Shown: in pieces, positions 1 through 401 of the stretch
Layout: each line of letters starts with the position of its first letter
Position numbering within the stretch: position 1 is the first letter of the stretch
IMG/VR virus record: IMGVR_UViG_2734482594_000019
Direction: 5' to 3' (one strand)
DNA from: a virus
Taxonomy: Duplodnaviria > Heunggongvirae > Uroviricota > Caudoviricetes
Length of the DNA stretch: 7,425 nt
Translations under genes and position numbers: made by a program
Notes under the pieces: model-generated
Told to the model about the DNA's origin: nothing
Seen by the model: the letters and a program-made list of their open reading frames with translations, nothing else
Database searches by the model: none

Positions 1-401
1 CCTTGCCCCTCATAACCGGCTAGTCGGTACGCCTCTGTCGGCTTTTTACCCTGAGCAACAAGCATCGCAAACTTAGCCTGCTGGTCAGAAATGCCGAATT
101 CATCGGGACAGAACGAAAATTCCTCCGCGTCGCCCTCATTCAGGCCCGCATCGAATACTGGCTTTTTTTCCTGAGATTTTTCGTTCCGCTTTTGTGCAGT
201 CTGCGCAGATTTTTTCTGCGCACTTTTTTGCGCAGTTTTGCACATTTCTGTCTGCGCATTTTTCGGAGTTTTTTTGATGTAACGACGGGCTGTTGCGTAA
301 TTCAGTCCCCTTGCTTCACACCATGCCACCGGAGATATACCGGAGCGGGTGTATTCAGCAATATACTCCTGCTGCAACGCCCCCCAGTCCGGTCTGCTCA
401 T
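1..401 (-). CDS. Terminase small subunit (TerS), N-terminal 133 codons; the gene continues past the window start
   Basis: I translated the minus strand by hand from ATG at 401-399 (SD-like AGGA about 8 nt upstream) and it stays open to position 1: MSRPDWGALQQEYIAEYTRSGISPVAWCEARGLNYATARRYIKK...FGISDQQAKFAMLVAQGKKPTEAYRLAGYEGQ. The segment ISDQQAKF...TEAYRLAGY fits the N-terminal HTH signature of Terminase_2-type small subunits as I remember it (SPP1 G1P-like pattern). A low-complexity TAQKSAQKKSAQTAQK linker precedes it. Not in the ORF track because it has no in-window stop. Position after the lysis and accessory genes is typical for lambdoid packaging genes. Confidence 0.6.
   Translation of the reverse strand, partial: MSRPDWGALQQEYIAEYTRSGISPVAWCEARGLNYATARRYIKKTPKNAQTEMCKTAQKSAQKKSAQTAQKRNEKSQEKKPVFDAGLNEGDAEEFSFCPDEFGISDQQAKFAMLVAQGKKPTEAYRLAGYEGQ
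194..258. repeat. Phased array of TGCGCA/TGTGCA hexamers alternating with A/T tracts inside the TerS coding sequence; candidate TerS-binding (pac-like) site
   Basis: Seen directly: TGTGCA 194-199, TGCGCA 202-207, 217-222, 229-234, TGCACA 239-244, TGCGCA 253-258, each separated by T-runs on the plus strand (about 10-15 bp period). Its role as a packaging site is inference. Confidence 0.35.

Follow-up and report, generated by a model that had tools for sequence, protein, structure and literature searches.

Why should the gene of a terminase small subunit (TerS) carry, within 66 bp of its coding sequence, six copies of what is essentially one palindromic hexamer? The question is raised by a 7,425-nucleotide (nt) stretch of DNA from a member of the Caudoviricetes, the IMG/VR record IMGVR_UViG_2734482594_000019, the whole of which is referred to below as the window. 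We regard it as highly probable that this array is a DNA-level element under selection. We also consider it probable, judging from sequence comparison, that the hexamers are recognition repeats for the N-terminal helix-turn-helix (HTH) domain of the TerS protein encoded by the same gene, and that together they make up the recognition element of a pac-type packaging site. Recognition by TerS is the best reading because synonymous positions within the hexamers are conserved, because the hexamers are retained whichever reading frame they fall in, and because they co-vary with the HTH of TerS. The number of known pac sites is small and predicting them is difficult; that of phage ES18, for example, has yet to be identified (PMC11260489).

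The window holds the 5' part of terS, encoding residues 1-133 of 364 (1..401, minus strand, ATG at 399-401); the gene leaves the window at its left end. The six TGCGCA-type hexamers, candidate TerS recognition repeats, occupy positions 193..258, and this 66-bp array consists of four perfect TGCGCA copies and two one-base variants. On the plus strand TGCGCA starts at 202, 217, 229 and 253 and TGTGCA at 193, while the copy at 239-244 reads TGCACA on the plus strand and TGTGCA on the minus strand; start-to-start spacings are 9, 15, 12, 10 and 14 bp. The original prediction had placed six TG(C/T)GCA copies, about 10-15 bp apart, inside terS. The six slots stand, with spacings of 9-15 bp, and so does their location in a minus-strand open reading frame (ORF) starting at ATG 401 whose full protein belongs to Terminase_2 and phrog_51; the sixth copy (239-244), however, matches that motif only on the minus strand. 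A single further TGCGCA occurs elsewhere in the 7.4-kb window, at 2149, and the array is the sole TGCGCA cluster in 16.6 kb around terS. Three or more TGCGCA within 60 bp were found in 0 of 2000 mononucleotide shuffles, where the window has four.

Read in the direction of the gene, the array begins 8 nt past the ..YIK codon that ends the HTH, and its slots could be compared among 31 unique alleles of the Escherichia clade. Slot 1 (253..258) is TGCGCA, read in frame 2 as AAT GCG CAG (N-A-Q), and is TGCGCA in all 31 alleles. Slot 2 (239..244, minus strand) is TGTGCA, read in frame 1 as ATG TGC AAA (M-C-K); TGCGCA is found there in 24/31 alleles and TGTGCA in 5/31, and the ancestral form is TGCGCA (M-R-K), the TGTGCA of the window being derived. 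The next three slots are TGCGCA in the window: slot 3 (229..234; ACT GCG CAA, T-A-Q; TGCGCA in 29/31), slot 4 (217..222; AGT GCG CAG, S-A-Q; 24/31) and slot 5 (202..207; TCT GCG CAG, S-A-Q; 29/31). Slots 4 and 5 together make an 8-bp inverted repeat, TGCGCAGA/TCTGCGCA. Slot 6 (193..198, minus strand) is TGCACA (TGTGCA on the plus strand), read as ACT GCA CAA (T-A-Q); it differs from TGCGCA by a synonymous change of G to A, and TGCGCA itself is present in 22/31 alleles against 9/31 with TGCACA. Since TGCGCA is the majority form at all six slots, the two imperfect copies of the window are derived single-base variants. The peptide encoded by the array is K-N-A-Q-T-E-M-C-K-T-A-Q-K-S-A-Q-K-K-S-A-Q-T-A-Q-K.

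The protein in which this peptide lies is composed of three parts. The full-length TerS (364 residues), taken from the window-identical record ON470595, matches Pfam Terminase_2 (PF03592) with 35.1 bits (cut-off 26.1) over residues 122-321, and phrog_51 'terminase small subunit' at 2e-76. Residues 1-133 were modelled with AlphaFold2 (AF2) from a 10-sequence alignment (mean pLDDT 67). The model and conservation among homologues delimit an N-terminal three-helix HTH domain, residues 1-45 (MSRPDWG..SP..WCE..GLNYATARRYIKK; 267..401, minus strand), with helices at residues 6-20, 24-31 and 35-41 (pLDDT 79-87). The third of these, Y35-Y41 (YATARRY; codons at 279..299, minus strand), is the putative recognition helix from the AF2 model and homologue comparison, and includes R39 (codon 285-287). 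A Lys-rich linker, residues 46-95 (117..266, minus strand), hosts the array; AF2 gives disorder over residues 51-93, with pLDDT below 50 for residues 51-80 and 84-93, and past the array the length and sequence of the linker differ between homologues. The Terminase_2 body starts with residues 104-133 (ISDQQAKFAMLVAQGKKPTEAYRLAGY; 3..92, minus strand), where AF2 places a second HTH (residues 106-127, helices 106-116 and 121-127). The N-terminal HTH is kept in about 170 homologues, also in TerS proteins of Shiga toxin (Stx) phages, so that the unit in question is a 45-residue three-helix domain of the form PDWG..WCE..A[RK]RYIK with a hexamer array directly after it. Within the N-terminal 133 residues no Pfam family was found and the PDWG..WCE..A[RK]RYIK domain has no Pfam model; NCBIfam gave merely a sub-threshold match of the TerS N-terminus to the IS66 TnpA HTH, and a sequence search of the PDB gave nothing useful for TerS or for the terminase large subunit (TerL), of which no solved relative was found.

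Homologues were collected from annotated phages, IMG/VR and GTDB (one genome per species), giving about 170 genes from Enterobacterales, Aeromonas, Vibrio, Pasteurellaceae and Stx phages. Essentially all intact ones have a hexamer array at the matching position, and the hexamers are retained down to about 35-45% protein identity. For quantitative comparison the TGCGCA class (ARRY) was reduced to 28 representatives whose nt identity within the first 330 nt is below 80%. In 28/28 the first hexamer lies 5-17 nt past the ..YIK codon, and TGCGCA has a density of 27.5/kb in the 186-nt linker versus 1.88/kb in the rest of the gene. In these representatives the hexamer is read in all three frames: 107 copies in frame 2 as xAQ/xAH (x being T, S, A, N, P, I, D, G, F, R or C), 27 in frame 1 as [LVM]R, and 9 in frame 0 as C-A. 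The Ala codon of A-[QH] is GCG in 112/122 cases versus 246/1103 (22%) for the other Ala codons of the same genes, and the codon before it ends in T in 113/122 versus a background of about 25%. For example, a Klebsiella prophage terS with about 40% protein identity carries, in a segment of 64 nt, six TGCGCA spread over three frames (TAQ, TAQ, PAQ, LR, TAQ, CA). Some distant homologues (L078, L080-L084, L116, L120 and L148; gene nt ~130-300) have two TGCGCA groups, 50-110 nt apart, with up to 12 copies. Among the 31 Escherichia-clade alleles, third-position conservation is 0.95 in the array and 0.75 at nt 301-420. The check on synonymous sites that had been proposed with the original prediction was thus passed, by the GCG and preceding-T counts and by retention in three frames; its claim of a signal beyond the coding need of the linker is borne out as well, the hexamer being kept while the encoded residues differ.

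An alternative at the protein level is that the linker is a low-complexity xAQK repeat born of replication slippage, with codons shared by descent. Tandem Repeats Finder does report 12- and 15-nt tandem units, copy number varies, and the A-tracts have a period of about 12 bp, which corresponds to four codons of the xAQK unit. Here, however, the hexamer is kept while residues change (AQ, AH, LR, VR, MR, CA), and it is kept in three frames in clades with otherwise saturated synonymous sites; moreover, GCG and the preceding T stand at about 92% against 22-25% of background, and in Pasteurellaceae the related hexamer mostly encodes Cys-Glu. Frame-independent retention together with the GCG and T bias means that a slippage-born protein repeat does not explain the array, and we judge it extremely unlikely.

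The same period bears on DNA bending. Runs of T/A of 4-7 flank the copies, as had been noted at the outset, and in 160-290 they have a period of 11.5-12 bp (0/2000 shuffles reach the observed power), with no signal in that interval at 10-10.5 bp. The hexamers themselves are spaced mostly by 7, 9, 12, 14, 15 and 16 bp across the family (mean about 11.7). A period of 11.5-12 bp, matching four codons and not the helical 10.5 bp, leaves intrinsic planar bending unsupported; the prediction that phased A-tracts would bend the site is therefore weak, helical phasing of the A-tracts having been rejected. As to the linker itself (160-275), its A/T homopolymer runs are 5-7 long in the window and reach 9 in certain homologues (L049, L063), and many database ORFs of terS end at 75-92 residues through linker frameshifts (proteins P0037-P0072); these frameshifts could stem from errors in sequencing, or from genuine slippage by which TerS is turned off.

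The second line of evidence is that the class of hexamer follows helix 3 of the HTH; a switch between R, K and other residues at R39 goes together with the hexamer class. Of 106 unique sequences with the helix ARRYIK, 105 have TGCGCA; the helix AKRYIK (K class) occurs with TGCGAAT/ATTCGCA in 25/25, often as the palindrome TGCGAATTCGCA. The two exceptions to the helix/hexamer rule are disrupted genes. The codon signal is even sharper in the K class, with GCG in 34/34, a preceding T in 34/34 and AAT in 32/34, and the inverted copy is encoded as N-S-Q and I-R-K. Outside the main clades, Aeromonas phiARM81mr has ARRYLK and seven TGCGCA, and the Pasteurellaceae phage Pmp11 with ten relatives has AKRYIKK and 4-10 TGCGAA, mainly as N-C-E. 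An E. coli class with AKNHIT has a TCGCGAA-type hexamer, with three copies of ATCGCGAA.

The most informative case of co-variation is the lineage of the Stx phage 933W, whose TerS N-terminal domain is homologous to that of the window (hhalign E 4.6e-10). Alleles of this lineage with NTARTRIKM have 4-5 YGATCA(T) at an exact 12-bp spacing, encoded as IDHEIDHKTDHEIDH, and sister alleles that are 72-76% identical, with the helix [GD]TARRYIKL, have 5-7 TGCGCA. In 933W the array lies at L174:1641-1683 (terS nt 141-183), and likewise in L176, L178-L216, VT2-Sakai and others. Hexamers of the 933W type contain the Dam sequence GATC and resemble HEX4, one of the two hexamer groups of the P1 pac site; from its sequence the YGATCA array is a candidate methylation-controlled pac site of Stx phages. 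The R module is found on four or more types of TerS body, and so is the K module, so that the array travels with the HTH and not with the body of the protein. A single case of loss agrees with this: in Rac-SA53 terS (L002:3268-4296) a deletion joined the 5' end of another gene, removing the HTH and slot 1, and 3/5 of the surviving hexamer slots are mutated (TTCGCA, TGCGCT, TGCCCA), a decay that fits relaxed constraint after loss of the reader domain. A code of one residue (R39 with C5, K39 with A5) was considered as a general rule and rejected, since P1 PacA has ARRYL and yet reads TGATCA.

Co-variation also bears on whether TerS is the protein that binds. Some other protein might read the hexamers (a host factor, the product of an 83-residue ORF just upstream, or a nearby ParB_N-domain protein), the association with the TerS HTH being mere linkage: the co-variation stems from few independent events, and HTH and array are adjacent and would co-segregate regardless. 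We hold this to be quite unlikely, for the upstream genes vary among array-bearing homologues (in Yersinia, Providencia and 933W they are lysis genes, and in Klebsiella small ORFs of other kinds) and the TerS HTH alone is always present; in the 933W lineage, moreover, helix and hexamer switch jointly in a domain otherwise 72-76% identical. It is very unlikely that the array, without any binding function, is a conserved junction that promotes recombination between TerS modules. It does sit exactly at the border between the conserved N-terminal module and the interchangeable bodies, third-position conservation falls past it, and one allele (L041) has a 27-nt repeat-to-repeat deletion; yet a recombination junction needs shared sequence rather than a specific hexamer in three frames with variable spacers, and the change of hexamer with helix 3 would go unexplained.

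A further explanation would place the function in nucleic-acid structure: hairpins could form in the mRNA of terS, or antisense (plus strand) transcription could end here at an intrinsic terminator. The array folds better than shuffles (z -4.6; Klebsiella -4.5), and on the plus strand the hairpin 202-222, formed by TGCGCAGA/TCTGCGCA with a 5-nt loop, is followed by CTTTTTT, a tail to 232, in a terminator-like manner. Good folding is, however, automatic for repeated palindromes, and arrays at the same position with TGCGAAT (z -0.9) or the GATC hexamers of 933W (z -1.5) do not fold, direct TGCGAAT repeats being unable to pair mutually; the array has no Rfam match either. We give this explanation hardly any credence, and the antisense terminator-like hairpin is probably a by-product of palindromic hexamers beside T runs.

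If the hexamers are read by TerS, what would the array do? A useful model is phage P1, whose pac spans 161 bp of pacA: seven TGATCA/G hexamers form two groups, with a site for the host protein IHF and the cut in between (PMC10028697). The TerS of the window would be an oligomer, as solved TerS proteins are, and it has a Terminase_2 body; the N-terminal HTH of each subunit is predicted to be flexibly attached through the disordered, Lys-rich linker. Several HTHs would bind adjacent TGCGCA hexamers 7-16 bp apart, as the co-variation suggests, on a replicated concatemer or on an un-excised prophage. Bound TerS would then recruit TerL, with a cut at or near the array, and packaging would run toward terL and the head genes, leftwards in the window, a course suggested by P1 pac/PacA and by further pac phages. 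The site lies directly after the codons of the domain that would read it, and the two would be inherited together as one cassette of about 200 bp; it is found on different TerS bodies, between which it could be moved with packaging specificity retained, and this would be the selective reason.

Binding by TerS need not serve packaging. The HTH might bind the hexamers for autoregulation of terS or the late operon, or to tether the protein to its own gene; both the DNA-level constraint and the HTH link fit any TerS-binding function, and a protein bound within a coding region could block transcription or translation. This is nevertheless unlikely in our opinion: the sole characterised system of equal layout, P1 pacA/pac, is a packaging site, recognition of packaging DNA is an established role of TerS HTH domains, and no promoter-like site overlaps the array.

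Several observations weigh against the recognition and packaging functions proposed here. The independent helix/hexamer switches number roughly four to six, not the ~130 cases counted as sequences, and P1 PacA combines the helix ARRYL with TGATCA, hence there is no simple one-residue code. The window allele, the commonest in E. coli, tolerates two imperfect copies. Foldseek with the AF2 model of the HTH against the PDB gave nothing at E <= 0.001. The IHF consensus WATCAR-N4-TTR has no match in positions 1-660 of the window, and no P1-like bipartite arrangement was found, with no second TGCGCA cluster in the 16.6 kb. In the literature that could be searched, no report of binding, cleavage or virion ends was found for any member of the TGCGCA class. 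Finally, headful packaging is only suggested, by a weak match of TerL to the PBSX-family model (31.8 bits, under the cut-off of 105), a P22-type coat and a presumed DUF4055 portal. The top Foldseek matches (the HTH proteins IstA, Aca1, Pax and Hin) were weak and were not used as evidence. Literature searches also gave nothing on TGCGCA or TGATCA with terminase or pac in the TerS family of the window, nor on a 933W pac.

More tentatively, and with doubts that slightly exceed our confidence, we propose that a portable packaging-specificity cassette of about 200 bp (HTH plus its own array) is common to the small terminases of many Enterobacterales prophages, Stx phages and, remotely, P1, and that it has been swapped between unrelated bodies with at least four to five hexamer specificities tracking helix 3 (TGCGCA, TGCGAA(T), YGATCA, TCGCGAA and P1's TGATCA/G). 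Were this so, sequence could directly reveal the pac sites, as well as where lateral transduction originates, in hundreds of prophages, including Stx phages of enterohaemorrhagic E. coli, and swapping cassettes could re-program packaging specificity. Such a sequence-readable signal would locate the start of headful packaging and hence the lateral transduction of neighbouring chromosomal genes. The set of array-bearing relatives is medically relevant (Klebsiella, Enterobacter, Citrobacter, Proteus, Providencia, Yersinia, Pasteurella, Aeromonas and Stx phages). A short, defined DNA tag could be used for transducible plasmids or phagemids, as is already done with P1 pac, and with the natural helix/hexamer pairs DNA recognition by TerS could be studied in a compact system.

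The window as a whole belongs to a lambdoid (Rac-like) prophage of E. coli, and every gene in it is on the minus strand. In the direction of transcription a lysis cassette (4898-3940) is followed by a trkG moron (3820-2345; Pfam TrkH, 1e-144), which lies between the lysis cassette and the packaging genes; trkG is presumably located in the Rac prophage of K-12 as well. Then come a gene for a ParB_N-domain protein (2207-1419), a partly masked gene for a TAGT-type glycosyltransferase (1412-660), and the 83-residue ORF (656-405), which ends 4 nt before the terS start. Downstream of terS, ON470595 has terL, a gene for a DUF4055 protein, which is taken to be the portal, and a P22-type coat. A 660-bp stretch of the terS region, array included, recurs without change in 10 phage records and, among 5426 complete E. 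coli genomes, in 901. The window-identical vB_EcoS-xxxR records were rejected as a source of data on virion ends, being in-silico prophages without end mapping.

Two of these neighbours deserve a comment. An unmasked homologue of the glycosyltransferase (L001:8595-9524) matches Pfam TAGT (TET-associated glycosyltransferase, 7.6e-35) and phrog_842 'beta-glucosyl-HMC-alpha-glucosyltransferase'; this gene (660-1412) and the ParB_N gene (1419-2207) stand directly upstream of the packaging genes, and are possibly a DNA-modification module, with neither a TET protein nor a methyltransferase seen near the pair. The 83-residue ORF, which is annotated with 69 residues, is similar in that shorter version to phrog_309 'terminase small subunit' over the middle of the profile only (positions 157-218 of 319, 1e-17). 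It could be what is left of another TerS, or else a small protein that binds DNA in an accessory role.

How, then, does the array compare with known packaging sites? The original prediction had cited P22, SPP1 and Sf6 as precedents for a pac site within the small terminase gene; the location fits, but the closest precedent is P1, with hexamers inside pacA, and not those three phages. P22 and Sf6 (gp1) are headful phages with the packaging site within the small terminase gene (PMC11260489). Their TerS proteins are unrelated to that of the window, and the P22 pac in gene 3 is a single asymmetric 22-bp sequence and not an array of hexamers. Prophage Gally of strain LF82, in which a pac peak has been mapped in terS, was not transferable either, its TerS being of the Sf6 gp1 type and without similarity to the window TerS.

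SPP1 is nearer in its protein, since G1P belongs to the same Pfam family (Terminase_2) as the body of the window TerS. In SPP1 part of pac lies inside gene 1 and TerS binds repeated short boxes; these boxes (pacL/pacC/pacR), however, have another sequence and are split on either side of the cut, and G1P is not known to have the extra N-terminal PDWG..WCE..ARRYIK domain. In lambda and phage 21 the R elements of cosB are short repeats read by the N-terminal winged HTH of gpNu1/gp1, and recognition helix and sites change jointly between specificity classes. The lambda cosB, in contrast, is outside and upstream of the gene, in a cos phage with fixed ends, and its domain family is unrelated to the HTH of the window.

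The closest known system is P1. As in the window, several (near-)palindromic hexamers lie in the small-subunit gene, downstream of the codons of an N-terminal HTH (..LN.NTARRY..) and in more than one frame; in both, multiple copies of one hexamer follow the HTH part. Seven hexanucleotide repeats are mentioned for P1 pac elsewhere too (PMC11260489), and synonymous recoding of the hexamers reduces packaging of P1 DNA (PMC10028697). In the P1 genome (NC_005856) one group of hexamers occupies pacA nt 194-233 and the other nt 324-352, and the cut falls at 276-285; the hexamers begin 65-70 nt past the HTH and are read in two frames (1 and 2) as IDH, NDQ, GDH, DDH and VIT. The 933W relatives resemble P1 in having GATC hexamers encoded as IDH or TDH. 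Comparison of the window TerS family with the N-terminus of P1 PacA by hhalign gave E 2.3e-4 and a probability of 44%, with only the N-terminal 42 residues aligned, colinearly. Phage D6 was also considered and set aside; its pacA gives a weak HTH match, but has no hexamer array, and D6 PacA fails to retrieve P1.

There are also differences from P1. The P1 hexamer TGATCA/G contains the Dam sequence GATC, which is found neither in the TGCGCA of the window nor anywhere in the array, so that the methylation control of P1 is inapplicable here. Two blocks, HEX4 and HEX3, flank the cut in P1, with an IHF site, whereas the window has one block of about 66 bp; the two TGCGCA groups of the distant homologues come nearer to the HEX4/HEX3 layout. 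The body of the window TerS, a Terminase_2 domain with a CxxC insert, is unrelated to PacA, and the phage itself is lambdoid (Rac-like) and not P1-like. As far as sequence can tell, the array of the window fails the GATC, bipartite/IHF and PacA-body features of P1 pac, but in layout it resembles P1 pac.

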